Shown here piece by piece: positions 27,583 to 53,071 of a DNA stretch of 64,000 nucleotides. This DNA comes from Patellaria atrata CBS 101060 (lineage: Eukaryota). A program made the translations under genes and the position numbers. Numbering within the stretch: the stretch's first letter is position 1; every line of letters starts with the position of its first letter. Where the stretch lies: assembly GCA_010093705.1 (NCBI GenBank), contig MU006103.1, positions 531,121-595,120 of the forward strand. Direction: 5' to 3'. The notes below the pieces were generated by a model. The model was not told where the DNA came from, ran no database searches, and worked only from the letters and a program-made list of their open reading frames with translations.

Positions 27583-27623
27583 GAAGTCTTGGACACTCCG
27601 TGCACAGAGACACTCCGTGCACG
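27583..27623 (+). repeat. Left TIR containing two direct copies of GACACTCCGTGCAC
   Basis: Exact reverse complement of 29661-29701. Confidence 0.97.
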
Positions 27624-27673
27624 CCACCCCATAAACCTATACTGTTACTTCAAAATTCAATATCTCCATCAAT

Positions 27674-29548: not shown

Positions 29549-29660
29549 ATAGATCTATTTCTTACTATCTAAATAACTATTCTACCAAATTTGAATATAA
29601 ACGGACTTATGGTTGTTGAGATATTCGTAATTCAAAAGCCATACTGTTGGTGGTGATCAC

Positions 29661-29701
29661 CGTGCACGGAGTGTCTCTGTGCACGGAGTGTCCAAGACTT
29701 C
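29661..29701 (-). repeat. Right TIR of the Fot1-like element
   Basis: Exact reverse complement of 27583-27623, followed by TA. Confidence 0.97.
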
Positions 29702-31419
29702 TACCTGAACATACAGTGACGCCAGAACAATTATTGGGCTTGTTCCCCACGTACGCCAGAGCACCCCCACGTCCTTGACCCGGCCCGACTTAGTTCCAAA
29801 TCGGCATCGGTAGAACTACTCAGAAGATATCCTTTTATACAACCCAAACTTAAATTAAATCATCAACAAACAAATGATCTAACATCTTTCTCTACTCTCT
29901 ATACCTACTGATCATCTTGTACGTTATGCTCTTGATGATGTTGTGAAAAATCTTTCTGTATATTTTGGCCTCGAGAGAGGTCATACTATAGTCTCAGCTT
30001 CCGTCGTCGGATCCGATATGAGTAATAGAAGCACCTAAAACACTTAATTGCTCGCAGATGCAATCCAAAATGAAAGCCATCGTTAAGAAAATCTCGCCCA
30101 TCTTCATCGCTCAAACGCCCGATCCGGGATTGCGAGCCCATCTTAGAAATGAGACCTCTTAGGCCCGTCTCTGGGATCACCGTACAACGAACGGTTACTT
30201 GCTTTGCACAAACTTCCGGTCCGATAGCAAGATCATATGCACGGCAGTCCTAGTCATGAAAATCGGGGTAGAGGATAAAGCAAACGAAGGAAACGCGCAT
30301 ACACCTCTCACTCTAAAAGAAACATATGTTTCGTAAGTAAGTGAGTCTATTGTCGACCTTTGCACCCTCTGGCGAACAACGCTGTAGAATTCGTGTGAAG
30401 ATAATTTACAGCGACGAGACCATGATGGCCAGCTTTATCATTAGCGTAAGAGAGGGTCCAGCTCAAATTTGCCGTTTTCCACTGTGCGGGGAGAAAAGGG
30501 AAGTACAAATACTGTATAATATGAAAATAAGTACCACCCCCTCCTCTAGGAGAGAAGGTACCCAATCTAGAGATGTTGTATTCCATAAATTGCATCGCGT
30601 GGCATATCTAATCGCGTGATCAGACTTTAGCCTTAAAAGAGAAACGAAGGAGTTTGCAATAAGCATACTGAGAGCTGTCGGGGCACGACAGTGCAAGGTT
30701 GGGTTGGGTTCTCCCTTAGAACAGAATAGAGGGGAGTGATACACTTCGAAATCCACTTCCGCTACACTTCAAAACAAGAGGAATAGCTCAAGCTGCTTTA
30801 TTCGGGCCTTTTCATTCTACGCCCCCGTACTGTAAAGCCGGGTTCTGAGTGTAGGCTGAGAATAACATCGTCGATATGCTTGCCTAGCTCTTCCACCTAT
30901 ATGTCGGCATTATCTACTATGATCTTATACGCCCCAGGTTTGTTGGAACTGTCAAGACCTGAATGGGTCGGGAGAAAGAGTGATACGGAGAAAGGGAGCA
31001 ACGCTTTCGAGGCGGGAAGCGAACCAATACAGATTAGAAAGCTTTCGGAGCGGGGGCCTTTCCCCATCACTAAGAGTTAGTACGAAGGGAAGGTATATGG
31101 TGAAAGATGTTCGGGTTGTTATATGAGGACAATAATGGGATAGAATGTAGTTCTACGGAGAACTCGATGTTATCAACCCGAAAAACCACCGCCTTGGCAA
31201 TGACGTACGGAGTACTCAGCAACAGGCTCTTTCCTTGATATCTTCTAATATTTTGATATATTAACGAACAAAAGATCCGGTGTCATCTATCTAACTCCTT
31301 GACCAAACCCCGACGCCGTGTGTATCCAAACAAAGGAAGACATTGTAATGGAATTGTCTATTAGAACTAGGGAATAGAGATCAAATGCAGTGCACCTCCT
31401 TCACAGAACATAAACCCCT

Positions 31420-34400
31420 CTAAATCTTAACGAACGCCTCCGGAGATTTCGCCATTTCGCCCAAACAATTCTTATACCAATCTAGAGCCTCTTGTGCTTT
31501 ACTCTTCGTTATTGCGCGCTCATCAAAGGTGAATTGCGCGACATATTCTCCCTTTGTCGCGGTCTTCCGAATTTCAAGCTGGATCGCATAATTGAAATAC
31601 ATCTTATTCTTGTTCATCTTCATCACAATCCAACGCATTGGATCAGGTTCTCCGCTCGACGGTTCGAATGGTTGGAAGCAGAAGAGACATTTTGACCCTT
31701 CAGAGCGATTGCGACCCAATGCTTGGTATATCTCTCCGAGCGACACTAGGCCGTTTTCCGAGGACTCCCAGAAATCAGCCTGTGTTTGGCTGAGAATTGC
31801 TTTGACAGATGTGTCCGTCGATATCTGGCTTCGAAAAGGCAGGAAATTGGCGCATGTGCCAGTGATGAGTTGCTGCACAGAGACATTAGGGCTAGTAATA
31901 AGTTAAGGGGAGAGGAGAATTTACCGGGTTGTCTATTGGGACATTGCGTCCCGAAATGAGATTGTCATACATAACATCTCGCGATCTACTTAGATGTGCA
32001 AGAAGGAGGCTGAATGCAGTTTGGAAGACGATCGGTGCTGTTACGCCGGCCACCTCCGCCAAGTCGTCCAGTCCAACTTCAACGTCAATTTTACCACTCA
32101 GACCACTGGAGATTTTGGGTTCCAGAGTAGTTGAAAGGAAGTCAAATTTATAACCTCCAAGAACATCTTTCCAGTAGTCGAGTTGAGGCTGCTTCTTTGT
32201 CGTAGAGATATAGTTGATGAAGTCCTTGAAAGGTGTCTGTTGTGGCAATGGAAGATTGTGGTTAAGAGCGACGAACTGGTCATCGAAGATGTACAAGAGC
32301 GATCCATCATACGACGCATGATCCAGCTTGATTACCAAGTCTCGTGTTCCATCTTCCGAATGCTCTAGCAGCATGTATCGAACGAAAGGCTTACCCGCTT
32401 CAAAGGTGGCTTCCCAATCGGCATCTAGGATTTGTTGTCTCTCTTCCTCGGAGCTGTACGACCGGTACGTCAGATTCAACACGGGATGCTTGAGAACGAC
32501 TTGGATAGCAGTTAAGGGATTGTTTTCTTCCAGGTAGAGGTAGAGTGCTCGCAGGATTTGATTGTTCTTGGTCAACTTCGTGGTGAGGTATATCCAACGA
32601 TCGAAGTCGAAACCAGCCGGTAGTCTTCGTACTGTATGAAGTTGCCAGAACTGGTCCTTCTTGATTCCCTGAGACAAGAATTCGATTTGGCCCGCGGTAC
32701 AGGGATATATGTCTTCTACGTCTTTCTTGAAGATGTTCAGTTCGGAAAGTCGCGCGTAGACTTCCGATGGCGGTTCATAGACAATTGGTTCTGCCGAAAG
32801 GACTGATTCCATTTCTCCTTGAAAATTTTTTTTCAAGAATGGTGTCTGTTCTCGAAGTGATGGGTTGGAAAGAATTTCCGAGACTGTGATTTGGTATCCA
32901 TGTCGTCGAGCTGTGCTAGTTAAATTGATGGCCGAGATTGAGTCACCCCCAATTCCGTGGAACGTGGAGTTTGCATGGATCTCCTCCAGTGGGACGTTTA
33001 AAGTGGATGCCCATAGATTTTGAAGTACACGCTCTGGCCCTGTACTGATTTCGACTACTTCAGCCTCACCCAAATACTCCTTCAGCAAGCTCTCATCCAT
33101 ATTTTCAACGAATGCAAGCAATTCCTTTTTGTTTGCTTTGCCAGAAACCGACAAGGGCATCTTTGATACCGGGAACCAAACGGTGGGTATCATATAAGAG
33201 GAGAGGGTTGTCAACTTCTCCGCAACCGCCTTCCAGTCCGGTGCTTCCTCTGGTGGAAGCAGCAAGCTTGTCTCATTAGCCGTTTGGCTCGTACTAGAAC
33301 CCAGGCAAAATGCAACCAGTTGCTTCTTCTTCATGACGGTCCCTACGACTACCGCACATTGACTGAAGTCATTTGTTTGCATGATGACACTTTCGACCTC
33401 ACCAAGCTCAATTCTGTACCCGTTCAACTTGATCTGATCATCTTTGCGGCCGAATAGCTCTATTTCGCCGTTGGGAAGCCATCTTGCAAGATCTCCAGTC
33501 TGATATATTCTGGTGCCGTCGGCTTGGGTATGGAACACCTTAGCCGTCGCCTCCGGACGATTAAGGTAACCCCGAGCAATTTGTGGTCCTCCTACACAAA
33601 GTTCTCCAACATCACCGTGTGGGATTTGCTCCATTGTTTCAGGGTCTAGAATCGCAGCAGTCACTGTCTTAAAAGCTCTTCCGATATTTCGCAAGTTGTG
33701 TTCAGGGGTCACCGTAATTCCAGTAACACAAATAGTTGCTTCAGTGGGACCGTAAAGACTGTAAACGGTCATTGCTCGTGCCCAAATATCTGGGATGAAT
33801 GGGGGGACAGGCTCCCCACCGATGCAGAGTACTTTCAGGGTGGGGATTTCTTCTGGAGAAAGAAGGCTTGCCATTGTAGGCGTGATACTGGCTTCCGTTG
33901 CCTTCATAGAATTAATCAGGCTTCCTAGGTTGGCTACCATAGCGTCTTGTGGAGCCATACAGAGAGTTCCACCAACCGACAGAACGGCAAAGAAAGCGTG
34001 GAAGGACCCATCGAAAACGTAGTTCAACGCCCAAAGACATCGCCATGATGCGGTAACGTTCGTTGACTCAACAATTCCCTGGGTGGCTGCTGCAAGTCCC
34101 TCGTGTGGCAAAAGCGTACCCTTGGGCTTTCCAGTACTACCGCTGGTGTAGACGATATATACGAGTGATTCCGGAGTCACTTCTGGTGCTAAGCATCGCT
34201 GAATTGGTATGCTGTGCCACTGAACATCTTCGATCACAATAACTTCATAATCCACACCTTCAAAAAATTTGCTGTTAGCCTTGTCTGTAATGGAAATCTT
34301 GGCACCGACGTCTTCGATGATGCCTGAATTTCTCTCTCTAGGATTCTTCCCATCAAGGGTCACGAAAGCTCCTCCAGAAATCATGACTCCGAGCATTACG

Positions 34401-37400
34401 ACCGCTGTGTTGATCGATTTGTCAAGCATGACTGGGACGACTTGTTCAGCACGAACTCCTTTCTTTCGCAGCAAAGTTGCCAATTGGTTTGCTTTGATAG
34501 ACAAGCCTGCGTATGTTATACTGTTACCAGAAGCCTCTTGGATAGCGATGTTGGACGGATATACAACAGCCATTCTTTGGATTTCGACGTGGACCATTTC
34601 GTATGTAAGCACAGACTCCGGTGGTTCGAAAAAGCCTTTCCCAGATTCTTGAGCCACGCTCACCGTTATACCGGTGCTCGACAATTCATCATTTCGCTCC
34701 ACGTTGACGTATGAATCTCCATCATCACTTGATGCGGAACTGGATGCAGGCGTAAATCTGTCGTTATCATCATTCTCAGAAGGTGACGCGGATGCGGTGC
34801 TCGAAATCCTTGAGATATCTTTGGTCTCATTATTCAACGGACAGTCAACGGCTGGAGGAGAGTTACGTTGTGCAGGCCCTTGGTGAGATGAGACTCCGAA
34901 GCTTTCCAAAACTCGAGCCACCGAATTCACCAAATTCTGCGATACAGATGATTGAAGTGTTGAGGATAAAACGACTTCGTTTAGTGATCCATTGTTGAGT
35001 TCAACCTTCACATTCTCATTTCGCTCGAGGCTAGCTTCTGGAAGTATAACTAGGCCACCAGCTTGTTGCGTTTGAGGGGCCTTGATCAAGAAGTTCACTG
35101 CTGTATCGAAAATATCCCTTGGTTGTTTGCTCGCCTTGAGAATGTTTCGCATACCATAGAGAGCGTGTCGAGTAACCTTCCAGAGTGTAGCCTGGACATG
35201 CGCAGCAATCGATTCTAAGGACAGTTCTCGATTGATAATTATTCGCAAAGGTGCCATTGTGAGTGCTGGTCCAGCCATTTGCATAATCCCTGAAACAGGT
35301 GCGTCTCTTCCAGAAAGTGTTATCCCAAAGATGATATCATCATTTGAGGAACTATCAGCGAGAACGATTGCCCAGGCAGTATAGAGAAGAACGGCGGGTG
35401 TAACCTTGAGCTTGGATGCTGTGCTCTTTAAGTCAACCTCAACCCTTGCGGTTACAGTATTCTCCGGCGCCATCCTAGACCCAAGCCTGCTAGGAATGGC
35501 ACCAGCGAGATAGCTTTGCCAGAAATCGTGCATGGCCTCTTGATCCTGCCGATGAAGATACTGGACATATCTATTGAAGGGCGTTCGTTGAATCGGTTTT
35601 CCGCCTGTCAGAATAGATGTAATATCTTGGGGTATAAAGGCGTTGGACCAATAATCAAATAATGCATGGTGAACAGTGATCACAAGAATGTCTTCAGGTA
35701 AAGTTATTACTTTCCACCATAAACCCCCGAAAGCCATCGACTCCGGATCTTGCTTCAGATAAACCTTCAGGTTCTTGTTGACAACTTCCCAAGGGACATC
35801 TACTGATTTTTTTACGACTTGCAAGTAAGAATGGCCGTGTGCCACAAATGTTGTGCGGAGAAGAGGTTGGGTTTTTATCAAGGTTTGTAAAGCTTCTTTG
35901 ACCGAGCTTACGCTATGTCCTTTGAAACTGTATGCTCGCCTGTAGATGAAGTCTACGCCACCCATGACCGCATTTGTGATCACACCCTCTTGAAATGGTG
36001 TAACGGGGAACACGTCTTCGATATCAGAGCTCTTGAGGCCGAGATCTTCAACATGGAAGTTTTCTTGCATTAATCCGAAAGGGCCGATACCGACATTACT
36101 TTCGAATTCCTCATGAGGTTTGACCTGGATAAGAGCGGCAACCTGAGCGAGAGAACCACCTAAGATGACATCTTCAACCCGAAGAGTTAAAGAGTATTCG
36201 GAATGTAGTTTGGAAGCAATCTGAACCGCTTCTAATGATGATCCACCCAGAGCTATAAAAGAGTCCTCAAGAAGGATATCAGACTCCTGGACGGGTAAGA
36301 ACTCCGACCAAACCTTTCTCACTATCCTTTCGTTATCGTTGAGATCATCCTCATTCGCTTCGCCTCTTGATCCAGGGGGGAGAAGTCGCCCGTAAAGAGC
36401 CAACGACTCAACCTTCTTTCGAATAGCTGCAATATCGACTTTTTGGTTGAGGTTGAGGGGCAAGGAAGAGGCCGGAACCCAGAAGCTGGGAACCATATAT
36501 AATGGCAGCTTATCACCAATGGCTGACCGGAGCTCGTCAACAATTGAATTCCAGTCGCTGCCAGCACGACTGACAATCATTGCAACGAGAACTGTCTTCT
36601 TTCCAACTACAGTTGAGACGACGGCAGATTGCTCCACTTCCTTGTGAGATTGAATGATCGCGTTTGGCTCTGCGGGATCAACCTTCTGGCCATTGATCTT
36701 GACTTGGTAATCTATTCTACCGATCATTTCAATTGATCCATCGGCATGACGAACAGCCAAATCGCCTGTACGGTACAATCTTCCACGACCAAATGGGTTC
36801 TTAATGAATCGCTTTTTCGTCTCCTCTGAATTGTTCAAATACTCTTTGGCCAGTTGAGATCCACCAAAGCAAAGCTCACCCGGAATGAGAAGTGGTGAGA
36901 GGTTGGTAGTTTCTGGTGTAAGGATATACGTAGTCGTTGTATCAAAAGCCTGTCCAAGGAAACGAGCTTGGGAAGCGTTCACCAGACGACGACGAGCATT
37001 GAGCTGCGTACATTCGCTAAGCCCATATGAGCTGAGAAGTTCGACTCGAAGTCCCCACATCTCGACTAAAGCAGGACTAGGCATCTCCCCTCCCAAAGCT
37101 AGTCGCCGAAGAGAAGGTGTAGTTTCTGGCGAGATCAGGAATGCTGTGGTGGATGTCATTTCAATGGAATTGATGTTCATCGAAGCTATCGTTTCGGCTG
37201 TGTGAACTGTCAAGTTCTTCTTGCTGGCCAAGCACAAGCAGCCGCCCGTGCACAAAGGGGCCCAGATGGACCTTTGCGCCGCTGAAAATACTGGATTGAA
37301 GAAAAGAAGCTGACGACGATCGTGAGACTTTGGGAAAGCCACCAGACCGTTGAACGCAGCATTGTGATCAAGCACCGCTGCCTTGGGCTTCCCTGTCGAG

Positions 37401-39248
37401 CCGGAGGTGAAGATTATATAGGCCGAATCGGTTGGCTCCTGGTCTAGAGCAAGGTCGGATCCATCATTATGCTTTGAGAGCTCGAGCAAATCTTCAATAG
37501 GAGTCTCGTTCTCAAAGAGACCAGCCGTGCTGTTGTCCACCAGGATATGGGTTGCCTCGACCGTTTTAATAATGAGACGGTTGCGGTCGGCGGGAGCCTC
37601 TGGATCCAAGATCACGTATGCTGCCCCCGCTTTAAGGATTGCAAGGAGAGTAAGTATCAGTTCAGAAGTCGTGCGCATTAGTACCGGTACAACTAAGCCT
37701 CTATGCTGTCGGATTTGGCGCGCGAGCTGATTCGCTCTCTTATTGAACGTGGAATACGAGAGCGGTTCATCAGATTCAAACTGAACTGCGCTCAAATCAG
37801 GCGTTAACCTTGCTTGCTGTTCAATTAGGTTGTGAAGAAGACCTCGTTGAGGCTTGAATGCTGCCTTCCCAGACTGGAGAATGAAGTCTGTTTCGCTCGG
37901 TAAAAACATTTGAATATCTGAAATGCGGCATTTTGGGTTTTCGACCATGTATTCCAAAGCTGCCACAAAATGCTTCATTAGTGCTTGAGCATCACATGCA
38001 GGGACGGATGAATTGTGTCGCAGGCTGAATTTCAGCTGTGTGGCAATAGAGATATTGAGAACCACTATCACTTGTAGTCAGTCTCGCGTCCTTGTTTTTT
38101 TTTTTTTCGGTTTTTCGGTTGAAGAGCAGCAACTTACAAGCAAAATCATCATCGTCAGTCATCACGTCGTAGCCATCATCGGTAAATCCGATTGAAACCT
38201 TTATTTGCGGTTGTTTGTAGTTGGCAGCCTCCAAAATTTGCTTATAGCCGATAAAAGCGTTGCAAGACGCCTCAGCTGTCACGTCCCTGACATGACCAAT
38301 CCAAGCAAGGGTATCTGTATTGTCTGGTATGGACAACATCAGTGGAAACTTTTGGTCAACCAGTCCGATCACCGATTCATGCTTGAAGAACGTTCTATCT
38401 CGACTCTCAACTACAAAGCATGCGTTCCGTTGACCATTGAGCCTATGCCTATCGGCAACGATAGCCCATGCAGCGTATAACAAGTCATGGGCCCGCATAT
38501 CGAAAGTTTCCATGAACTCCAACATTTCGCCGAGTAGTTCATCGCATGCAGTGACTACTGTCTCAACTCTGGGAGACTGGTGCACCTGAGGAAATGAATA
38601 GAGTGATGATGGCTCCTCACCCTCAGGGAATAGCTTTTTCCAATAATTTTGGGCTCCTTGTATGTCTTTCGTGGAGATGTGCTTAACATAAGCGGCCATT
38701 GACTGATTTGGCTCTAAAGGATATCCATTGAAGCAGAGAAAAAATTTCCTTTGAAGTAAAGCCAGTGAGGTTTTGTCAATCAGGGCTGGGTGTATGTATA
38801 GCACGACAACGGTTTCGCCATCCTCGGCCACTACTTCAAGCAGCCCGCCCTCACGGGAATGTGGCCTAGTAGAAAGGTATTTGATGGGATTTGCGGCTGG
38901 ATGGATTACCTGAGAGTAAACACCGTCTTCAGAGGTCTGGATTCGAGTACGCAACACCGGAGTATTCCGAGCTATGGTCTGCCAAGTGGAGGCTATTCTC
39001 TCGATCGTTTGATTAGAAGTATCTGGTATCTTAAGTAGGACAATTGAGGTAACTGCATCCTGATTTTCCCTGCAAATGGCTTCTTGTTGTGCTAATAAAT
39101 GGACGTTCTCATTGAAGGCGAATTTAGATTTAATGTCAGAGACTTTATCTTGAAGTGCTTTCCGTCCCAGTTTGGATGTTTTTGTTCGAAAAGAAGAGGT
39201 TATCGAAACTGGTTCTTGGCAGGTCGGTTCATCAATGAAAGGGGCCAT
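31420..39248 (-). CDS. Bimodular nonribosomal peptide synthetase, C*-A-T-C-A-T-C, about 2569 aa
   Basis: Exons 39248-38138, 38070-31925 and 31872-31420. A3 motifs FTSGSTGKPK and YTSGSTGKPKG; YRTGDL and YQTGDL; T domains LGGSSL and IGGDSI; C motifs IHPALID, HHALFD and DHASYDG. Confidence 0.93.
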
Positions 39249-41392
39249 GACGGATTTAGCACCAATTACGAGCACTCTGTCAAAGAGAACCGCGACAGAA
39301 CCATAAAAGACAGGGGTAAAGAAAGAGGAGCTCTGAAAATGAGAGGGTTGAATAAAAGATATCAACTACAGAAATGATTCAAAGTAAAGATCGGGCTCTG
39401 GCCAATATCTAGGAATCTCCGCACACTCTCCCTTTTAAAGATACCCTAAATTTTCTCTAAGCAGTCCCAATTTCCAGCTCACTCCGTGCTCAACCGTGAT
39501 TCCGGTATCAGGTCTAGGTGTAATGATCTTACAGAGCTACCACCTTCCGTCCGCTAACGTTTGAAAGTTTACCATGTTGGAACTTGGATATCAACAGAGA
39601 AAACATGGTTTCTCCCTTCTGTGCACAGATCGCAAGCTGTTTGCTGAACTCCTGTTGTCGCCTTAGCGGTTCCATGACAATACGAACTTCGTAAGTATTG
39701 ATCTCCAAGATACTACTCACAAGCAGTGATGCCCATGAGCTGGAAGTTAGTCGGTTGGACCGGATTTCGGCACCCGTTTCGAATGGTTTCAAAATGACCG
39801 AACTGGGATGGATATGGATTCAACTACCAGAAAATGCAGTCAGATCCATTTGAACTTCCTCCCCGGAAATCCCTCTCCTCTCTCCCCTCCCCTCTCGCCT
39901 TTTTGCCCCTTTTTACTATGACCCGTCGGATGTACCCGAATAAGCAGCAGATGCCTAGCCCGTGCGTAACCCGTGCGGTGCGGCGTAGCCGTGTTATTGA
40001 GTATATTCACGCCTATTACTAATCATTTACATAATAATAGTGGATTCGTTGTATCGGACCGGACTCGGATTAGATCCGCCATTGGATCTTACCTTGCTTT
40101 AGATTCGACGCTCAATCTGGCTCAGTCAACACTGACATCATTGCCGCTCACTGTGCAATTGTTGGGACTCTCTCCGGCTGATTTGCTGAGAGGCTTATCC
40201 GATACTCGAGACATTGCTTCAACGAGATCTCATCACTTTCACGTAATGTTAGAACCCAGGAGCCCGGGTGAAGGTAAGATCGGGCTGAACGAGGAGATTT
40301 CGCCTCATCGCTCGATACGATGGACCGAATGGACACACTCGGTTAGCAATACCAGATTCTACATTACAAAGGCCGCTTGTACTGATTGAGTTCTCCTCGT
40401 TGAGCTCTCTTACGGACGATCATAGACCCACGAGCTCCTCAGTACTCGACAACTCCCTTTTAAAAAAAATAAAAATTTAGAACAGACAGTTCACGGGCTG
40501 CTCTCTGTAGGAATGAGAGAGTCTACTAAACCTACCTAACGGGTCAAGACGTGGACACACTGTCGATGAAAAGTAGTAAAGATAGACTAATTTACTTGCC
40601 TTAGGGATCGCTTCTTATCGGCTATAGCAATTTGGTCATCAGCGTAGAGAATGATCTGCAAGCTGACATCTAGTTATGAATTGCCGGTAAAGTCAAGACC
40701 CTCCCTTGTCTTGGATGTAGGCAATTAGATTAATAGAACAATAATATCAGAGCTTCGGAGTTTGGCTAGTCAAAACCCATACCCAGGCAGGAGAGGCGAA
40801 AGCGTAAATGCCACCGTAACTCCCCTTTGTGAAACAAGAAAAATAACCATGCATGGGTGAAGATACTACAGATGATTCTGTCCTACAGTGGCTAATTGAT
40901 CGACTGTATAGCATGACAGCTAGCTGGATTCTACCATCTCGCATATCGTGGCTTGACCTTCCTAATTGCGGACTCACTGCAGGGTAGCTGCAGGATCACT
41001 GTACGGGGTTACCTATCTACGTAGAGAACCCTAGCCGAGCGGCCGTGCCTATACCTCAGAATAGAACGTTCTAGTAGTACTCGCTCTGATCTTTTTACAG
41101 CATAGGGGCCGTTACTGGGCCTCTGGACAGTAGCAGGGTTTGCCATATCTCTAATCTTTCTCGGACAGGTCAAGCGGCGTGAATGATATATCGCGTGACA
41201 AGCTTTTCTTTCCTTCGTATCAGTAATAGAGTCGAGCCCTTCCAAATTACTACGAAATGTAATATCTTCTTGACTGTCTCAAGCTCCCACCCTCCCGCAT
41301 ATAAGAACTTAAAATCCTTTGATTCAGGCCCTTTCTAAGGAAAATCTCACTATAATTCTATTTCCGATCAGTTATTCCTCTTTGCAGTTATC

Positions 41393-42545
41393 ATGAGTTC
41401 AATTATTCAAATTGGAAAAAAAGTTACCAGCCCTCTTGGTTTCCAGAAAGGGTACAATGTCATCCTTTGTAAGTGAGAAGTACTCGACGCTTTCCTCAAG
41501 ACATGCTGACTCCGTAGTCATTATTTTTGGAGGAGCGCTGATGGGGTTTGCCCTGGCCCGATTCCAGTTCCTGTCTTTCAAGGGTGTTTTTTGCAAACCT
41601 CTCTCGACCCTAGGGGCTGCTCCAGGAGAATGTTACTGGTATAAGCAAGATCTCTACAAAGCCGGAATTCTACTCCATCTCGGTTGCATGCTCCCAGCTT
41701 CCTTTCTGGCCGCCTTCCAGTTCGTTCCATCCATTAGACACCACCTCTTGATTTTCCACCGTATGAATGGATACATCATCATTCTTTTAACATTGGTCGG
41801 TAACGCTGGTGCTATCATTATCGCACGCCATGTCTTTGGGGGTACTGTTGCTACTCAAACTCTTGTTGGCACTTTATTTCTCATGTCAACATTTGGCATC
41901 CTAAACGCCTACTACAACATCAAATGTCTCCAAATAGACCAACACCGCGCATGGATGCTGCGCACATTTGCTTGGATGGGATCTATTATTACCGCTCGTG
42001 TAATCCTTATTACTATGATCCATGCCATCAGTTCCCTTCCCGCGGGCTACAACTTCTACGATAACCGCTCCTGTGATGAACTGATCTCCATCGCCGGTCC
42101 CGATCCCGTTTACGCTTTCTATCCCGAGTGCGTACCCGGATTCTCAAACAGCACAACTGCTGGCCGTGTTATCCTTCGTGCAACATGGAATTCCGACAAT
42201 CCGTTCGAAAAAGTAGCAGTGGCTGGTCTGAGTTTCCCCGCTACCGTATGGCTTTCCCTCGCTCTCCATGTTCTCGGCATCGAGTTGTACCTTGCTTTCA
42301 CGCCGAGGGAGGGGCAGAGGCTTCGCCAAATCTCCTACGAGAGACAACTTGCGCGCGGCATGAAGAATCCTGGAAGCGCAGGTCTCGTCCCCGAGAAGTT
42401 CGCGGATGCGGATCCTTGGGTTCCCAAACTCGAAGATAGAGAGATTCAAAAAAATAAAGAATCTTCCTCAAGATCGAGTGGAGATGACTTTGCGAACATT
42501 GAGAGGAGTATTACTGATTCTGTTAGGATTTATGCTACAGCTTAA
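41393..42545 (+). CDS. DUF2306-type predicted membrane protein (1 intron)
   Basis: PLGFQKGYN, APGECYWY, His-bearing TM motifs (LHL..LPA, FHRMNGY, QIDQHRAWMLR, ALHVLGIELYL), LRQISYERQL. Confidence 0.8.
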
Positions 42546-43795
42546 CTAAAGAAATCGAGTTGGGTGTTTGGGAAACCTGGTAAGCTTAACTGGGCAATGC
42601 AATCGTTTACAAGTGTCAAGTGTGTTTTTCGTCTCGATCCATTTTGTACTACTGGACAGGTGTATTTGCGTCCGTATGGACTGGGTTGTTTGTGCTTCAT
42701 ACCCGACCGTTCGCAATGAAGCGAAAACCAACTGAAGCTGGAATGGAAGGGGACATGACGGGAGGTAGTCAAAGCTCAGAGCTTTTCATTTCCCGGATCT
42801 GTGCTCAATAAGGTTAATTAACCTTTTTGAACTAGAACAAACGCTAGCTATCTTCGGCTTAGGTAGAGAATTAAGATCTAATGCAAAACCGATACGGTCT
42901 AGTATAGAAACATTGACATCATGCAGTAAGAGCCTTATTTATACTACCTCGCAGAGCACAACTGATCTTTAACACTCACTTGAACCTTTTCTCGGACATC
43001 TCAGTAAAAGTTCTGATTGATGTGGTGTGCTATTTATTGAACTGATAATTTGCCGAATAGGTAGACTTTATCGGATTTTGCAGGATTGCAATTCCTACGG
43101 ATACCCATTTGGCGAACATCCAGAGACCGGCCAGTGGGATAGTAAGAGAAGCTCGCGGGAAACGTGACAGAGAGGGCTTCTAGCCCTATGGAATGGAATC
43201 ACCTCACGCCCTGTCATATTTGGTAGTTACAGTAACAAGGCCAATCGCATCCATCCACTTGCGACCTCCGACCTCCGAGCCCCCGAAGACCGCTCCGGTT
43301 ACACGAGAGAATCCTTTCGACTATAGCCGTGCTGCCGTATCTTTTGTTTCCTACACCCGCTTGAGAAGAGGGCATCATGATCTTTTCGCAATAACTGAGC
43401 GGTGAATAAGCCGCCTAGATAGTGCAAGATGGAGTTTTCCATACGAGGAAATAAGAACGGACGAGACACGATTTCTACATCATCACATTGCGGTGTAGCT
43501 TACGATTGCAATATGACAAAGAATACGGGAATATTCTAACCGGATGCTCATGATTTCACGCAGTTCACAGGTTGAAGGTTAGAAGTGCGAATTCCTTCCC
43601 CATTAGAAAACAGGTGGGTTGTGTATCTCATCAGGGCGAACTTCCCCATCAAATTCCGTTTCTTAGCTTCAGTTCGTTAAAGATCTTCTTTGCAATTATT
43701 AGTCTTCAATTCTATTTTCCAGCCTCCTTCTCTTTACTCAAGATCATTTTCATCTTGCTATCCTAGAAAAAATTGTTGCACTACAGTCAATCGTC

Positions 43796-44470
43796 ATGTC
43801 CACCGTCGCAAACCCAAAAAACCCTCCAGTCTTTGTGGGAATTGCCGCCCCTCCCCCTGCTGGCAAACAAGCTATTGCTTGCCTCGACCCCAACAACTGT
43901 CCTGCCACTCATGAGGCTTGTGGTAAAGTCCTGAACTTTTTCCCCTTTCGCCGCAACATCTTCGAGTTACTCGCACGCTCTTCCGGATCATTTCCTCACC
44001 TCATGCGAACACTTGGCTCAATCTTCAATGGGGCCGAGCGAACAATCCCACTTCTTGACTGGCAGCTCATTGTTTTGCGGGTCGCAGGAAGTTTGGACGC
44101 GGCATATGAGTTCGACGTTAACGAGCCCGTTGCGAGAGTCTACGAAATGGGTGATGATAAGATCCAAGCGTTGAAGGACGGACTTAACACCGAGGACATT
44201 CTCAAGATGGGAATCTGGAGTGAGAGACAGCAATGTATCATTACGCTTGTGGATGAGAGTTTGGCGACATATACCAATAAGGAGAGTACAATCGAGTGGG
44301 CGAAGAAATTGATGACTGAGGATGAGGTCGTTGAGTGCTTTATCGTGCTAGGATTGTACGCAATGATCGCTAGAATCACCAGAGGGTTGAGAGTTCAGAT
44401 AGATCCGGAGATTCCTGGTTTGGACGGATTTATCAGAAAGGGGGTCACGAAGAATGCTAGGGATCCTTAA
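43796..44470 (+). CDS. AhpD/carboxymuconolactone-decarboxylase-like protein
   Basis: NIFELLARS, WQLIVLRVA.....YEF, SERQQCII.LVDE, EVVE...VLGLY.MIARI pattern typical of AhpD-like helical proteins. Confidence 0.75.
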   Translation: MSTVANPKNPPVFVGIAAPPPAGKQAIACLDPNNCPATHEACGKVLNFFPFRRNIFELLARSSGSFPHLMRTLGSIFNGAERTIPLLDWQLIVLRVAGSLDAAYEFDVNEPVARVYEMGDDKIQALKDGLNTEDILKMGIWSERQQCIITLVDESLATYTNKESTIEWAKKLMTEDEVVECFIVLGLYAMIARITRGLRVQIDPEIPGLDGFIRKGVTKNARDP

Positions 44471-44721
44471 GTGGTTGACAACTTAACTCCTTGATGCGAG
44501 AATAATGGAAACCTATGTCGCTATTTTATCTCAATTGGTTTTTTATGGCCCTCGTGATATCTAGCGCGTGTAACGTCAAATTATATTCAAAGTGTATTGG
44601 CATTACCTTTGCGTCTAGGTGTTCGACTTTTAATTCATACGTGTTAAACCATTTTTGTTTATGCTCGGAGAAGATAGAGACCGTACATAAAATCAAAAAT
44701 GAAACCCTTGACATTATACGC

Positions 44722-45789
44722 CTATTCAAAGATGAGAATAGACTTTGTACTATTTCTTTCCATCTTCACAGCATCCGCCACCGCTTCAATCAAGTTCTCC
44801 GAATCCTCTACATTCCATTTGATCTCCCTATGCCTAGGTAACCTCAATTGTCTTGCCTCAAAAAGATCCACGAACCATGCTAACAGGTCAGCCAGTTCCT
44901 TCTCACTCCTTTGCGCCGCCTGTGCCGTAGTTCTAAAACTCCTAAATACACCGGCTTTCCAAAAGATATCTCTATGCGTCAACTGAATCGCACTATCTGG
45001 GCCTCCCCCACCAAACTGTCCATAATTAACGAAAACAGCTCCGTTGCTCATCGCACTCGCAATCTGGCGTGCCGAGCTTCCCCACACCGAGTCGAGCGCC
45101 AGAACAATTTTCCTCCCATCCGCAACCTCAGCGGGGATGAACTCCTTCTCTTCCAGAACCACATCCATGAACGCCGTGAGCGCCACCTTAGCCTCTCGAC
45201 CTGCCGCCTCATCCGGCCTATCGCGAATGATACTCACAGTCCTCGCGCCCTTCAGTCTCGCAAACTGTGCGACCGTCTGGGCGATGGCCGACGAGCCCGC
45301 ATTCTGAACGACCCAATCTCCCTTCTCAAGCGCTTTCATATCCTCGACTAGGAAATACGCCGGGAGAACCACGGTCTTCAGGATAGAGGCGAAGAGGACG
45401 TTCGTGCCGCTTTTGACCTTGACGACGTCGCTTGCTTCGACCAAGGCATGCGTGCGCCATGTGCCGAGTCCGTAAGATTTGGGGATCACTAGGTTCCCTT
45501 CTTTCAGCTCCGTCACTGAACTTCCGACTTTGAGGACGCGGGCGACGCCGTCGAAGCCTGGGATTGGGGAGGCATTGAGGGTGTGCCGGGGTTTGATTGG
45601 GTACCGACCTGCGAGGACGTGAATGTCGAGAGGGTTTATGGGCGCAGCGAGGAGTTTGAGGAGGACTTGGGTTGAGGAGGGGTCTACAAGGGGGAAAGTT
45701 TGGAGGGTTAGGGATTCGTTCAGGGAGGTTGAGTCGGTAAGGGGGTGGTTGATGGTTAGAGTTTGTCCTGCTATTGGGTTGCGGGGCAT
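44722..45789 (-). CDS. MDR-family trans-2-enoyl reductase (Etr1/MECR-like), intronless
   Basis: LAAPINPLDI...GRYP, GLGTWRTHA, GDWVVQNAGSSAI, LALDSVWG, FVNYG. Confidence 0.88.
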   Translation of the reverse strand: MPRNPIAGQTLTINHPLTDSTSLNESLTLQTFPLVDPSSTQVLLKLLAAPINPLDIHVLAGRYPIKPRHTLNASPIPGFDGVARVLKVGSSVTELKEGNLVIPKSYGLGTWRTHALVEASDVVKVKSGTNVLFASILKTVVLPAYFLVEDMKALEKGDWVVQNAGSSAIAQTVAQFARLKGARTVSIIRDRPDEAAGREAKVALTAFMDVVLEEKEFIPAEVADGRKIVLALDSVWGSSARQIASAMSNGAVFVNYGQFGGGGPDSAIQLTHRDIFWKAGVFRSFRTTAQAAQRSEKELADLLAWFVDLFEARQLRLPRHREIKWNVEDSENLIEAVADAVKMERNSTKSILIFE

Positions 45790-46859
45790 TTTTGGTTCTA
45801 TTGAAAGTGGAAGATGGGAAAGGGGAATGCAAGTTGCAATTTGGAGTTTTGGAAGATGCTACTTGAACTTCTAAAGGGCGAGAGAGTTACCCACTATAGA
45901 CTGATTCTCGCATTAATTCAGCATCAAAATAGGTAGCACGTGGGAGACACCAGGGTTGTCTTACAGCAAAACGTTGCTAAGCTGACCCGCGTCGTCGGGG
46001 TATGGCACTATCTAGCGCCTTTAATCCTAGACCTTCTTTAGCGTAATGATCTCTCGGTTTCCGATAACGGGGCATACTCTTACTCGATCTGGCCAAGTTC
46101 CAGATAAGGTAGGTTTTAATGCAAACTTAAAATTTATGGTTACACGGGACGGTCCGTACCTGGTACGGAGTTTACAGGGTGCTTGTCGATCATGCGCCAC
46201 GCTACTTGCACCAAAGGGAGCACGGGCGAACGCTGAGGGTAGGGTTCATGCGAATGCGCCCAAGAGAGGTCCATGTTCTCGGTTTCGGTTTCGGCACTCC
46301 TCATGCTTAGTTCTATTGCCGCTTGAAAAAAAAACTTTGTTACCAGGTTTTGATTGCCCCTATCTTTTGCCTTGGAAGCGGTCTGCGAATATCGCTTTAT
46401 TGATCGAATTTGCGATATCCTGCTCTTCCTATCCGTTCTTTTTTGTCCGTGTACGCCCCAAGGATTTTTGCTATTACGGCGTTTGCTAATCCAAGTTTAA
46501 TTGTACTTTATGGTTGGCTATCACGCTGCTCTCCCTGTGGCGTTTAACACACCGCTACACCCGGCTAAGTTTAGCTGAGGCCTCCTGTGGTTACAACTAC
46601 CTGTTAAGGAGATGAGGATTCACTTTCTGTGTTCGAATCGTTCATGTGGCTCCCTGATTTCTAAGATGGCAAATCAGGGGTTTCGCGTTGGGTTATTGAT
46701 TGGGAATGAAATTAGAGAGAGCGTTTAAGGTCAAGATGTAAGGAAGTAGAAAGAAGAAAGTAACCCAAAAGTTTTGTTCATCGCCGCTAGTTATCATATA
46801 GTCACTTGGAAACGACATTTTCTGAACTCTAACGCGAACCCATCGCAATCGACTTGACC

Positions 46860-48750
46860 ATGAGTTCTTTGACAGAGAAACAGGTTTCTATTAACGAGCA
46901 ATCGTCTCTAAACAATAGTTCTAGTGAGATTGAGAGTCAGCCTGCATCTCAAGGTGATGAAAAGGTCCATGCACCTTTCAAGAGAAAGACAAGAGGGATC
47001 ACTTGGATTCTAGTTGTGGTCGCCATTCTCTCCAGTATCTTCCTCTACGCATTAGACAACACTATCGTCGCAGATGTCGTTCCCTCCATAACTCAGTCAC
47101 TGGGTAGCAGCGAACTACTTCCATGGCTTTCAGTCGGGTAAGCTTCATCACTCAAATGTAAAGATCACATTCTTCAAGGACTGACAATTCTTCCAGCTTC
47201 ATGATTGGTGGTGTTGGTGTTGCACTTCCGTTTGGTAAGATTTTCGGCTTGTATAACGTGAAATGGTTATACATCTTCTCCTTGACGCTTTTTATGGTGG
47301 GCTCTGCACTTTGCGGTGCAGCACCCAACATGAACGCCATGATTGTGGGTCGTGTCATTGCTGGAGTTGGAGGAAATGGAATGTATCTCGGAGTCATTAC
47401 ATTGCTCTCTGTCAACACCGAAGAGAAAGAAAGACCAATGTATCTTGCCTTGGTGTAAGTTTTGTTCCATTTCGCCCTTGGTGTCAATATACAAAATACT
47501 GATATACTCATGCGAGAGCAGTGGTCTTGTTTTTGGCGTTGGGACATGCGTTGGCCCACTTATTGGAGGAGCCTTTGCTGAATCTCCCGTCGGATGGCCC
47601 TTTGCGTTCTACCTGAATTTGATTATCGGCGGACTGTTCGCCCCTGTCTACCTCTTCATGCTTCCAACCTTTGATCCTCGCCCTGGAGTCCCCTATACTG
47701 AACGGTCTCGCGAAATTGACTACGTCGGTACAGTTCTCAGCATCGGAATGATCGTCTTTACCGTCATCGGTATAAATTTCGGAGGTGCAATCTATGCTTG
47801 GAAAAGTGCAACTGTTATCGTCATGCTGGTTCTTGGCGTGTTATCATGCATTGCTTTCTTCGCGCAGCAGGGATTTGCCTTCTTGACCACGAAAGATCAT
47901 AGAGTCTTCCCTATGCAATTCCTCAGACGTCCAGAGTACATCCTACTCTTTTGTCTCACGTCTGCAGCCAATGCTGCTGGCTTCTGCGTCATCTATTACA
48001 TCCCCTTATACTTCCAATTTGCCAAAGGGGAGGCTCCAGTTGCCGCCGCAGTCAAGATCTTACCCCTGATCGTCTTCATCAGCGCAACGATTCTAGTGAA
48101 CGGTGCTTTGATGGGCAAATTCGGATACTACAAGCCATGGTATGTTGTCGGTACGGCCTTAATGCTAATCGGCGGCGTCCTTATCTGTAAGACCATATAT
48201 CCATCCCATACAGCCCAATTCCTCCAAACTGATAAGATATAGCCCGCGTCAATACCTCCACCTCCACCGCCTATGTGTACGGCATGGAAGTTATCCTTGG
48301 TCTCGGCGTCGGATCCCACATCCAGTCAGGCTTCGCCGTCATCCAATCCATAACCGAACCAGCCGTCATGGCCTATGCAATTACATTCATGATGGTAGCC
48401 CAACTCCTCGGCATCGCGATGGGTCTCTCAGTCTCCGGGGCTGTTTTCGTCAACGTCGCCATCTCGAAGCTGCAAGTGGCTTTACCTCGCGTTCCGCGCA
48501 AGACGTTGTTGGCGTTTATTTCCGGGGCACGGTCGGAGCTTTTTGACACGCTTACGGTGGAGGAGAAAGCGGGCACTGTTCATGCTTTGGTGGAGACTAT
48601 TCAAAAGGTTTTCGTCTGTGTGTATGCTGCGGCTGCGTTTGGATTCGTGCTTTCTTTATTCCTAAGGGTAAGTCGAGGTGGTGAACTGCTGGGATTCCTA
48701 GCTAACTCATCTTTTAGCGCCAGAAGGTTGCCAGTCAAATTTCGGCATGA
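46860..48750 (+). CDS. MFS efflux transporter (DHA2, 14-TM type; 4 introns)
   Basis: FLYALDNTIVADV, LPWLSVG, GSALCGAAPNMNAMIVGRVIAGVGG, GPLIGGAF, FYLNL, YYIPLYFQF. Confidence 0.92.
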
Positions 48751-49261
48751 AGAGGAAACGGTACGAATCGATTAAATGAGTGAGCGCTAGACTTGAACCG
48801 CGGGGCTTTAACGCTTTTGTCGCTCTGTAGGACACAAGATGGTGCTTGAGCTATAGACTTGCTGGGTATGTCTTTCGCATCGCTTGCAATGGTTTGCAGT
48901 TATACGAATATGAAGATAGAATTTAGATTGATGTAATATTGGCCGTAACAAATCCTGTTGAGCACTCTGTGTTGTCGAGTCTAATATTCTGTTAATCATT
49001 ACTTTCCTGGAATCTATTGGAAAGAATACTACACACATCGAGAAATAGAATAGCTATGCGAATCTATCTTCTCGACCTCGGAATAAGATTTGTAAGAAGA
49101 GGTTGCATCACACAGCGCACTGGGAGTTCCTTGGTACTTGGACGAAGCAAAATCAAGCTGTGCAGTAATACAGTTTATTTCAAAATAAACATATAAACTG
49201 ATAGTGACATTTTAGAACATTCGCAAAAGAGGAGAAAAGTTCAAATGAGAGTGAACGATGT

Positions 49262-51136: not shown

Positions 51137-53071
51137 ATGAAGAAGTGGAGGTATGTAAATCTTGTTGGAAAGAATTGAAATATAACCTACAAGTCTTTAT
51201 GGTTATGTATACTTCATCTAATCCACAATTTCATTGTTGATCAACGATCGCTCACTTTTTCCTAATGATTTGAACTCAAGATCTCTTGATGGAGAAATAA
51301 TGTCCTAGACCGTGCAGTTATTCATCCTGGGTCCATCTGAGCTTTTTCTTTTGGACTCGCATTTCTGTCTCGTCCTGCAGTAACTGGTGACGTTACACAG
51401 TGTACCGAAAACTGATTTCCTCGATGTGTTTCCCCATCTGGACATTGTATTCGAATTGGTTCCGTATAAGTGGAAAACATAGATTAATTCACTACCTGGC
51501 TCTATATTAGCGCGCTGCATTTGATTGGTGGAGAACATATTTACGGTCAGCAATGAAAACAATTGCGGGGTCGAAAATAGCTGGATCCCCACTAGAGAAT
51601 AAATACAGAGAACATTGAAACTGATTATAGTGATAGATCCTATACGATGTATTATCAACCAGGGGAAACGATAAAACAGCGACAAACTGGACAATTCAAT
51701 TTCATGAGACAAAGCGGTTGGTGGAGAGAATTGATAATAAAATACGGAGATTTTTATCGCATAAGCAACGTGAGAATTTTTAGATCTAGTAATATTAATC
51801 GTATAAAGAGTTATCATAGAATAAAAACTGCTTTACCGTCATACTAGAAAGGATTTTCAGTACTCTGAGAAAAAAAGTTTCAGTTCAAAAGATTAACGTT
51901 CTTCCTATTAGGACTGGATCATATATAAACAAGAGATCTTTTTTCTACTTTTCATTATGAACAGGTAGGGTTTAGTGAGAACATAATTATGGGTATACAA
52001 ATATGACAGAATAAAAAGGATTTCGCCACCTAGCTTTACTTACTATCATTCTCATTCATAGAACCTTCTCCACATTCAAAGCTATCTCTATGATCCTACA
52101 AAAGTACCCTGGGTGACGGACGACTAGAATACATTGGAGGAGGTAGTGTGGCGATACCTTAACCCGCTGATAGTGACTTTAAGGGACTCTTACCTGTTGA
52201 TGGAATCCTCCATATCATACTCAAATTGCATCTTAAACTTCATCCATCTCTTCTACGCGTATACACTAACGCTTTATCATCAGTAATATTTCGTCGGAAG
52301 TTCTGCAATCGACCTTGAATTCTCGTATTCTTTCTCTCCACCATTAGTGGTAGATACCAGCTGCATTTAACTTCCCGTTATGTTTCCAATGCCACGGCTG
52401 ATTTATCAATATCAGAATCCTACTCTTCCCCTCGAGATCCTGTGAGTAGCGGACTAACCTAAAGGCTCAAGCCGGAGCGGACTGGGCGCAAGCATACAGC
52501 CAGCTATTCATCTAGGACTTTCTCTTGATCGATACTGAATTGGCTGATTCTGAAATAAGACCTTGGACGTGATCAGACGGATACGCTAACGACCGTAGAA
52601 AATCGGCCCGTGTGCTGTATAAAGCAAGGTTCAGCATGTTACTCTACTCGAATTCCAGGTACGAGTTCTTCTAGTTCACTGTGGAGTTGAATTTTTCTCA
52701 GGCTAATATCGGCTAATTCGGACTCTTAGGAATACCTCCCCTGTTGCATCGGTCGTACCCGACAATTATGGAACTTCCTATACCCGAAAGCTCCGATCGG
52801 CGATTGGTCGCCCCGATTGGGTCACAGAAATATCTGACCCACCGAATAAAAGTATTTGTCATATCCTGAGGTAGTATTGGAGCGATGGAATAGAAAATAC
52901 ACTACGATGGATGTAAGTTTATTGTCTTTCACTAAAAATGGCGGAGACATGACTACCTCTGCATTCTCTTCTGGTCGTTCTATAAAGCCCTTATAAGGTC
53001 TTCTCGCAGTATCTCTTTTCCGTTGAGCTTCTAATACCACATATGAGCTCTTCTAGGAAGCCTCAATAGCA

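Follow-up and report, generated by a model that had tools for sequence, protein, structure and literature searches.

A five-gene NRPS cluster of Patellaria atrata related to ftp and SidE carries an AhpD-fold protein and a paralogue of Etr1/MECR enoyl reductases

Analysis of a 64,000-nucleotide stretch of contig MU006103.1 of Patellaria atrata CBS 101060 (hereafter the window) revealed a five-gene cluster which is related to the ftp and SidE clusters; its core chemistry is known, and its set of helper genes differs. Its nonribosomal peptide synthetase (NRPS) is, from its sequence, the orthologue of Aspergillus fumigatus NRPS7/AFUA_3G15270, which we take to be FtpA. The cluster had been labelled undescribed in the initial annotation, a description that had to be abandoned since this orthologue stands at the core of ftp, an A. 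fumigatus cluster already characterised in part. We propose with moderate confidence that the cluster is an ftp/SidE-family pathway coupling a small dicarboxylic acid to one amino acid through an amide bond. We predict as the likely product an amino acid N-acylated with a dicarboxylic acid, either as such or closed to an azlactone or imide, with the acyl unit possibly reduced to the succinyl type.

All five genes modelled as open frames that can be spliced through predicted introns, in agreement with the earlier view that they are intact, and their coordinates matched the arrangement first described, two divergent pairs around an AhpD-like gene. The NRPS (39248-31420, minus strand, 2569 aa; exons 39248-38138, 38070-31925 and 31872-31420) was assigned the bimodular organisation C0-A1-T1-C1-A2-T2-CT from the gene model, Pfam and tree analysis. 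Divergent to it lies a gene for a DUF2306 membrane protein (41393..42545, plus strand, 367 aa, intron 41469-41517; gene model and Pfam). The AhpD/CMD-fold protein (43796..44470, plus strand, 224 aa) was recognised by its predicted fold. The second pair encodes a paralogue of the Etr1/MECR-like 2-enoyl-thioester reductases (44722..45789, minus strand, 355 aa; alignment and Pfam ADH_N) and an MFS transporter of the drug-efflux type (46860..48750, plus strand, 552 aa; Pfam MFS_1), with introns at 47138-47196, 47455-47521, 48187-48242 and 48668-48717. Two of the seven predicted introns thus modelled are in the NRPS gene (GT-AG), one in the DUF2306 gene and four in the MFS gene; the AhpD-like and reductase genes are intronless. 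The cluster is bordered by a DNA transposon at 27581-29703 and a GH127 gene at 49262-51196. The Pfam domains found were AMP-binding, PP-binding, Condensation, DUF2306, ADH_N and MFS_1. As stated previously, no P450, PKS or transcription factor was detected by Pfam among the scanned ORFs (30 of the 77 of at least 110 aa and 30 further, mostly short intergenic or flanking ones), and their sole methyltransferase domain is 18 kb off (12521-13546). The assembly showed zero differences over 30500-50400 from two runs that are probably DNA of one sample and probably not independent of it.

The NRPS is 52.9% identical to P0139 over residues 193-2562 (59% in A1 and 57% in A2), and members of the P0139 cluster carry the name A. 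fumigatus NRPS7. In the A1 tree, the two proteins grouped together inside a 100/100 clade holding 20 of the 56 rows; the A2 and CMD (AhpD-like) trees were congruent, with the same order. P0143 (49.8% identity) aligned from residue 1 of our longer NRPS model, and the deposited shorter model, P0121, was rejected on this basis as the true start. Published work equates nrps7 with pesH and AFUA_3G15270, places the gene in a 'partially characterized ftpR cluster' and cites aromatic fumaric acid amides for it; fumaryl-Tyr/Phe is described as the substrate of FtpM, and the reported ftp products are unsaturated fumaryl amides, fumaryl-Tyr/Phe and their methyl esters. The window and ftp (AFUA_3G15240-15290) share orthologous NRPSs with A1 domains of the same Ser235/Arg239 type, an AhpD-like gene near the NRPS and, by annotation or domain, an MFS efflux gene (AFUA_3G15250 in A. 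fumigatus). Only the window's cluster has the enoyl reductase and DUF2306 genes, whereas A. fumigatus has FtpM and FtpR; Pfam detected no FtpM-type methyltransferase or FtpR-type regulator among the scanned ORFs in and around the window's cluster.

The C0 domain, most of which is encoded by 38138..39248 on the minus strand (Pfam Condensation, E 2e-13), is full-length but degenerate, whereas P0139 aligns from residue 193 only. Its motif, IHPALID, is missing the second, catalytic His and C0 is therefore probably inactive, its role being probably structural; HHAL is kept in only 5 of the 55 aligned relatives. Starter acylation by C0 was rejected because this His is absent and the A1 substrate would have no amine. 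The C1 motif, HHALFD, is intact. With code positions fixed through alignment to LgrA, A1 (36434..37840, minus strand, code SAREAGSQLK) carries Ser at the Asp235 position and Arg at 239, and is identical to P0139 (SARDVGSQLK) at 8 of 10 positions. A1 is thus predicted to have a pocket of the dicarboxylic-acid, non-amino-acid type; we take the Ser235/Arg239-type code to denote fumarate. From the product class first suggested, the N-acylated amino acid with an acyl unit that is dicarboxylic or unsaturated agrees with this code and the orthology. A siderophore or diketopiperazine NRPS was ruled out, A1 being without Asp235. A2 (33128..34597, minus strand) retains Asp235, the mark of an alpha-amino acid, and its code, DGHSCGLICK, is identical to that of P0139 (DGYNAGSICK) at 6 of 10 positions and differs at 4. 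Because this code is unlike that of the A. fumigatus enzyme, which takes an aromatic amino acid, the A2 substrate is probably different from the Tyr/Phe used there. A-domain codes are poor predictors of fungal substrates, which counts against our main proposal.

SidE (AFUA_3G03350) is described as an A-T-C-A-T-CT enzyme associated with fumarylalanine and fumarylazlactone. The window's NRPS belongs to the same family and shares the Ser235/Arg239 A1 pocket, the two modules and the terminal CT; it differs by the additional C0 and by Glu278 where the SidE type has Gly at A1 278. Identity was 36-37% to P0238, a protein compared in place of SidE, considered SidE-like by inference and placed in the other main clade. 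Two locus numbers from SidE, AFUA_3G03330 carries the annotation 'mitochondrial enoyl reductase'.

Pfam gave zero matches for the AhpD-like protein, and a search of solved structures with its single sequence returned chance matches only. Its predicted fold nevertheless agreed with the AhpD/CMD-like call of the initial annotation, matching the CMD-family protein SMU.961 (3lvy; Z 17.9, rmsd 3.1 Å over 175 residues) and Atu0492 (2gmy; Z 17.0, rmsd 2.1 Å over 145 residues). Identity to proteins of the same fold (SMU.961, Atu0492, Bmp8 (6ohi) and AhpD (1gu9)) was 10-18%. A profile search of solved structures gave one weak match (Atu0492, E 0.05), in which the CxxC...H stretch of Atu0492 aligned with AxYE...N; in the two closest Atlas clusters, 12-61% of members carry PF02627. 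The protein has no CxxC and no conserved cysteine pair, and Asn109 is present in 119 of 119 relatives, which were chosen by likeness to the query, as were those counted for the reductase, a point against our main proposal. Other conserved residues are Q90, Y104, R53, R82, R95, R144, R193 and D203. An AhpD peroxidase role was rejected because the redox CxxC with its His is replaced by AxYE and Asn109. PcaC, the 4-carboxymuconolactone decarboxylase of the beta-ketoadipate pathway, has the same fold; the genomic context here is NRPS clusters. The gene is present as a single copy in the genome and its product is 55% identical to P0012 of A. fumigatus, where the AhpD-like gene and the NRPS are three accessions apart (EDP52231 and EDP52234). 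AFUA_3G15240 is its probable orthologue, and has been reported to be induced (log2FC 5.83) together with 15250, 15270, 15280 and ftpR.

The best solved match of the reductase was Etr1/MECR (E 4e-37). Alignment to MECR, which underlies the pocket argument, placed Tyr63 at the catalytic Tyr94, common to both, and Lys138 and Arg286 where MECR has Gly165 and Trp311; among the similarity-selected relatives, Tyr was found in 117 of 119, and K/R likewise in 117 of 119 at each of the other two sites. Trp311 presumably contributes to the long acyl tunnel of MECR. A side chain at position 165 has been reported to shorten this tunnel. The acyl tunnel of the window's reductase is accordingly predicted to be short and cationic, as would suit an enoyl thioester that is short and carboxylated. 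A separate, housekeeping-type copy in the genome, 33% identical to the cluster reductase, has Ser at the Gly165 site and Trp at the Trp311 site; this copy and the Lys138/Arg286 substitutions led us to reject a housekeeping mitochondrial role for the cluster reductase.

Linkage of the helper genes to the NRPS was assessed by a proxy, matches on contigs of equal size being taken as one contig. Among the 118, 119 and 118 matches listed, this gave 24 CMD-NRPS, 21 CMD-reductase and 15 reductase-NRPS pairs, and at least 11 such pairings were confirmed by consecutive locus tags. Of 15 metagenome loci, 4 combined NRPS, CMD, reductase and MFS genes and 5 had MFS relatives (38-57% identity) adjoining CMD relatives; one locus (L004) had a CMD gene with no NRPS match inside 10 kb. 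Some fungi encode CMD-reductase fusions, in one order in P0310 and in the other in P0314 and P0317. Collectively, adjacency in many fungi, the congruent tree and co-induction indicated that the AhpD-like gene constantly accompanies this NRPS family, which in most branches also retains the re-tooled reductase. In the Aspergillus-rich ftp radiation, the AhpD-like gene is present and 0 of 41 NRPS rows were paired with a reductase (hand count, proxy), indicating that the AhpD-like protein needs no reductase. The earlier expectation that the neighbours are linked to NRPS orthologues elsewhere therefore held for the AhpD-like, reductase and MFS genes, and for DUF2306 in the nearest relatives only.

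It is very improbable that the NRPS alone matters and that its neighbours are unrelated housekeeping or stress genes: the repeated adjacency, congruent trees, fusions and co-induction of the CMD, reductase and MFS genes argue against it, as does the separate housekeeping-type reductase, and for CMD and reductase it is refuted. What speaks for chance is the DUF2306 gene: its family is widespread among fungi (497 representatives at E <=1e-10), it was absent from all 15 CMD metagenome loci, and its locus tags in Candelaria and Phlyctema lie far from those of the NRPS or CMD gene. This single-copy gene encodes about 5 hydrophobic segments, and its best relatives (59-60% identity) were proxy-linked to reductase and NRPS relatives. 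Its linkage is confined to the nearest sister group and its membership of the cluster is uncertain; we put a chance neighbour at slightly under even.

From the observed gene structure, orthology, linkage and residue changes we infer the following chemistry. A1 would activate a dicarboxylate of C4-C5 size, either fumarate or an acid close to it, and load it on T1, as orthology and the A1 code suggest. The Etr1-like reductase may then use NADPH to convert the 2-enoyl bond of a tethered or CoA-bound carboxy-enoyl unit to the succinyl type, in keeping with its residues and linkage. A2 would activate an alpha-amino acid, probably other than Tyr/Phe, and C1 would form the amide; by analogy with SidE, CT might release an acid, azlactone or imide for export by the MFS protein. 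The least certain step is that of the AhpD-fold protein, which may act alongside the reductase as a non-peroxidase enzyme on the carboxylated acyl unit, most likely by an elimination or decarboxylation through which the enoyl unit is made or altered. Against this proposal, there seems little gain in reducing fumaryl to succinyl if succinate could be loaded by A1 directly, and ftp clusters giving unsaturated amides offer no evident role for the AhpD-like protein in making the acyl unit. A wider form of the proposal, which we advance tentatively and which may well prove wrong, is that a Cys-free AhpD-fold lyase/decarboxylase and an Etr1 paralogue with two basic residues are a widespread trans tailoring pair acting on NRPS-tethered dicarboxylic acids, the window's cluster being the older, reductase-bearing form from which Aspergillus ftp was cut down.

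The same genes could instead serve self-protection, which we consider unlikely: the NRPS, like FtpA and SidE, would make a fumaryl amide or azlactone that is unsaturated and a Michael acceptor, and the reductase, AhpD-fold and MFS proteins would detoxify or remove this electrophile or stray fumaryl thioesters without shaping the product. The SidE azlactone is reported to be highly reactive, ftp is reported to yield fumaryl amides while probably carrying the AhpD-like gene, and the predicted cationic reductase pocket would suit a fumaryl group in either role. However, 0 of 24 SidE-type NRPSs (Gly at A1 278) were proxy-linked to CMD or reductase, as opposed to 35 of 95 with Asp/Glu at this position (hand counts, over phylogenetically non-independent relatives). 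Etr1-type enzymes act on thioesters, and a tethered intermediate is therefore favoured over a free amide.

A branched-acid route appears quite improbable, although it would give a reason for having a reductase at all. Here the AhpD-fold protein would derive a mesaconyl or citraconyl unit from a C5-C6 acid (aconitate, citramalate) by decarboxylation or dehydration, the reductase would set a 2-methylsuccinyl stereocentre and CT would close an imide of the versimide, violaceimide or pencolide type. The several invariant arginines of the AhpD-fold protein would suit a polycarboxylate, and a reductase-O-methyltransferase fusion (P0328) was proxy-linked to the NRPS P0175. Fungal methylsuccinimides exist, with methylsuccinic acid as their proposed precursor. 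Against this route, no producer of versimide, violaceimide or pencolide was tied to the cluster, no biosynthetic study was among the literature matches listed, and the products reported for A. fumigatus, whose enzyme is orthologous, are plain fumaryl amides.

That a bimodular NRPS can join a dicarboxylic acid and an amino acid is familiar from SidE and ftp. We found no published description of a reductase-bearing version of ftp, or of an activity for its AhpD-like and reductase proteins. What calls for explanation is that this NRPS family has retained an AhpD-fold protein and, mostly, a re-tooled enoyl reductase; with five genes and intronless helpers, the roles of these two proteins are easy to test. 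The analysis singles out AFUA_3G15240 as a gene of the A. fumigatus ftp cluster that is co-regulated yet unexplained. If true, both a reductase acting on carboxylated enoyl thioesters and a new AhpD-fold reaction would be useful biocatalysts, and the tailoring pair would account for fungal succinyl and 2-methylsuccinyl amides and imides of the versimide/violaceimide type.

Gene modelling confirmed both the five intact genes described in the initial annotation and their orientations. The NRPS (39248-31420, minus strand, 2569 aa), the DUF2306 gene (41393-42545, plus strand, 367 aa), the AhpD-like gene (CMD; 43796-44470, plus strand, 224 aa), the reductase (45789-44722, minus strand, 355 aa) and the MFS gene (46860-48750, plus strand, 552 aa) each gave a frame without internal stops. 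Predicted GT-AG introns with CTRAY branch sites and ascomycete homologues indicated that the DNA is fungal; the sequencing runs located are probably of DNA rather than RNA. The claim that P450, PKS and regulator genes are absent also held among the ORFs scanned with Pfam (30 of the 77 ORFs of at least 110 aa, plus 30 more, mostly short). An intact-looking pogo/Fot1-type DNA transposon was found at 27581-29703, 1.7 kb past the NRPS stop. Its terminal inverted repeats, 43 nt long, match perfectly, and the frame at 27635-29545 (DDE_1 and HTH_Tnp_Tc5) is open. Short frames between this element and the NRPS (29989-30770), with weak matches to DUF7924 (E 3e-5) and a transposase (E 0.005), are possibly decayed gene remnants. 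Next after the MFS gene lie an intronless GH127 beta-L-arabinofuranosidase-like gene (49262-51196) and, beyond it, a CVNH (cyanovirin-like lectin) domain (53057-53359); neither showed any sign of cluster membership.

The NRPS displayed the domain order C0-A1-T1-C1-A2-T2-CT. The deposited version, P0121 (2318 aa), begins only at Met184 of the 2569-aa model and is missing roughly 68 residues more; the longer start is supported by the relative P0143. Among the best 120 of 1182 matches to module 1, the closest were 52-58% identical and many were named 'Nonribosomal peptide synthetase 7'. P0139, which stands for 162 sequences (A. fumigatus NRPS7 being the name of most of the 15 listed), was 52.9% identical across residues 193-2562. 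A maximum likelihood tree of 56 A1 domains (the window and 55 of the 119 listed matches) placed the window protein inside a 100/100 clade of 20 rows, in the order P0143/P0144/P0149, window, P0139-bearing radiation (96/89, 91/91). The same order was obtained with 34 A2 domains using FastTree. P0238 (P. expansum, 2108 aa) was placed in the other main A1 clade. One ground for calling it SidE-like is its code, which we take to be of the SidE type; the other is fumarylalanine in P. expansum, as given in the available text of bioRxiv 2023.11.02.565319.

The A1 code was SAREAGSQLK in the window and SARDVGSQLK in P0139. Read by hand, Ser at the amine-binding Asp235 site together with Arg at 239 was present in 118 of the 119 listed matches, the remaining row being gapped. 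The A2 code, DGHSCGLICK, kept Asp235, with four positions unlike P0139; most similar to it among the listed matches were the codes DGHSIGGILK (P0144, P0145, P0147, P0149) and DGHSSGAILK (P0162). The C1 (HHALFD) and CT (DHASYD) motifs were those seen most often in the family. C0 probably lacks catalytic activity, because it carries IHPALID in the window and HHAL is retained in only 5 of 55 aligned relatives. Basidiomycete members of this family with a SARG-type A1 code (P0179, P0181, P0183, P0222, P0229) were found in Taiwanofungus, Rickenella, Amylostereum and Mycena.

The top solved-structure match of the reductase was human MECR (E 4e-37), and a second, housekeeping-type reductase, 33% identical to the cluster's own, is encoded elsewhere in the genome. 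The catalytic Tyr was kept in 117 of 119 relatives. Two gapped rows apart at each site, these relatives carried Arg (73) or Lys (44) at the MECR Gly165 site and Arg (107) or Lys (10) at the Trp311 site; in the housekeeping-type copy these sites are Ser and Trp, respectively. The accessible part of PMC9899272 reports that Gln at position 165 of MECR shortens the acyl tunnel and excludes long chains. Judged from the alignment, a predicted short tunnel with two basic residues would fit an enoyl thioester that ends in a carboxyl group, for instance fumaryl or mesaconyl. P0328 is a reductase-O-methyltransferase fusion on a contig of the same size in bases as that of the NRPS P0175.

The AhpD-like protein, encoded by a single-copy gene in the P. 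atrata genome, gave no Pfam match. Its AlphaFold2 model (pLDDT 90.8, built from 32 sequences) matched 3lvy (Z 17.9, rmsd 3.1 A, 175 residues), which identifies an AhpD/CMD fold; 2pfx, 2gmy and Bmp8 were further matches, Foldseek agreed, and the Atlas value was 0.97. A thiol peroxidase role was rejected because AxYE...N aligns, albeit weakly, with the CxxC...H stretch of Atu0492, and because of the residues conserved among 119 relatives: N109, Y104, R144, R193 and D203 in all 119, R95 in 118, R82 in 117, Q90 in 116 and R53 in 115. A putative arginine-rich site would suit carboxylates. The AhpD-like tree (33 rows) mirrored the NRPS order, with P0017/P0021, then the window and P0002, then the P0012 group.

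Contig sizes were compared to assess linkage. Two matches on contigs of equal size in bases were counted as paired, using 118 CMD, 119 NRPS and 118 reductase rows from the best 120 per search, after the window's own entries and two that lacked a contig had been removed. By this size proxy, the listed matches contained at least 24 CMD-NRPS, 21 CMD-reductase and 15 reductase-NRPS pairs, all three genes shared at least 4 contigs, and 37 of the 82 CMD matches on contigs of at least 12 kb had a partner. Adjacency was confirmed directly by locus tags, for example, for CMD and NRPS (BBP40_010605/010607, Q9216_004999/005001, GJ744_001144/001142, CNMCM5793_003562/003560), CMD and reductase (MMC16_000016/000015, MMC07_004776/004777, BST61_g6646/g6647) and NRPS and reductase (M1835_004799/004800, VTN77DRAFT_9352/9353, CHGG_10752/10750), as well as for an NRPS and a fusion (GX51_01403/01402). 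CMD-reductase fusions, which may be faulty gene models, occurred in both orders (P0310 reductase-CMD; P0314 and P0317 CMD-reductase). Hand counts by the same proxy, in rows that are related and not statistically independent, gave a CMD or reductase partner for 35 of 95 listed NRPS matches with Asp/Glu at A1 position 278 and for 0 of 24 with Gly; CMD pairing was 12/41 and reductase pairing 0/41 in the P0139 radiation, and reductase pairing 2/5 in the sister group.

Fifteen metagenome loci held CMD relatives: four with MFS, CMD, reductase and NRPS, a P450 sitting between MFS and CMD; five, near-identical, with CMD and NRPS; one with CMD, reductase and P450; one with CMD and MFS; three shorter than 3 kb; and L004, in which no match to the NRPS lay within 10 kb. 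In L004 (7838-10528) the AhpD-like relative forms a divergent pair with a gene whose product has a cucumopine synthase C-terminal domain. L002, L006, L013 and L014 (about 3800-20500) represent a sister cluster type (MFS, P450, AhpD-like, reductase, NRPS; A1 SARE[T/V]GAQ, A2 DAYMNC), for which we know of no product; in L002 and L006 it is preceded upstream by a GMC oxidoreductase gene. The proposed five-gene linkage stood for the AhpD-like, reductase and MFS genes, which recur with NRPS relatives, and is uncertain for DUF2306, found in none of the 15 loci. The best DUF2306 relatives, P0415 (60%) and P0582 (59%), lie on contigs equal in size to those of NRPS P0144 and reductase P0301 (170,106 bases) and of reductase P0300 (22,619 bases), and for more distant relatives the locus tags showed no linkage; therefore, all five genes probably occur together again only in the sister group. 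A chance neighbourhood is very improbable overall, and is still live for DUF2306.

The window cluster probably works like the A. fumigatus ftp cluster, with which it shares an orthologous NRPS and AhpD-like gene. Unlike that cluster, it has a different A2 code and an added, re-tooled reductase, and the ORFs scanned in the cluster and its surroundings showed neither FtpM nor FtpR. We take AFUA_3G15270 to be FtpA, presumably preferring fumarate and Tyr/Phe in vitro, and AFUA_3G15280 to be ftpM. The sources, as far as accessible, equate NRPS7 with pesH and AFUA_3G15270 (PMC6737921), bound the cluster at Afu3g15240-15290 (PMC3689640) and name fumaryl-L-Tyr and fumaryl-L-Phe as FtpM methylation substrates (PMC9307002). 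The available text of PMC13068945 calls AFUA_3G15250, 15270, 15280 and 15290 (ftpR) a 'partially characterized' cluster, citing Kalb et al. 2015 for aromatic fumaric acid amides. P0012 (A. fumigatus, 55% identical to the window AhpD-like protein) is three accessions from the NRPS (EDP52231/EDP52234; KAH1987801/KAH1987804), from which we infer that it is AFUA_3G15240. In PMC13068945, AFUA_3G15240 is induced (log2FC 5.83) with 15250 (7.05), 15270 (4.98), 15280 (4.67) and ftpR (8.67), and AFUA_3G15260 is not. The initial description of the gene set as undescribed therefore fails for the ftp-orthologous NRPS and AhpD-like gene. It may hold for the reductase-bearing version: neither this nor a function for the AhpD-like gene was found described in the literature listings searched (MIBiG and most subscription papers excepted). 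The accessible parts of PMC12568646, PMC10512231 and PMC10478498 added SidE citations and nothing further on this point.

We propose that A1 would load a small dicarboxylate and that the reductase would saturate the enoyl unit while it is tethered. One amino acid would be added by A2 and C1, and CT would release the product as an acid, azlactone or imide for export by the MFS protein. We favour this whole route, at somewhat better than even confidence; its amide-forming core is likely. The CT domain of SidE sets free a reactive azlactone, according to the available part of PMC11101550; that the reductase, AhpD-fold and MFS proteins instead serve self-protection against an electrophilic product is rather unlikely. 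A route to methylsuccinimides, compounds described in the accessible part of PMC10077240, appears improbable. Within the dicarboxylate route, the most likely task of the AhpD-fold protein is to edit the acyl unit on which the reductase also acts; its role is less settled because the ftp cluster carries an AhpD-like gene without a linked reductase, yet fumaryl products are reported. Tentatively, and as a possibility short of a probable one, the two proteins may form a trans-acting lyase and reductase unit for NRPS-tethered dicarboxylates.
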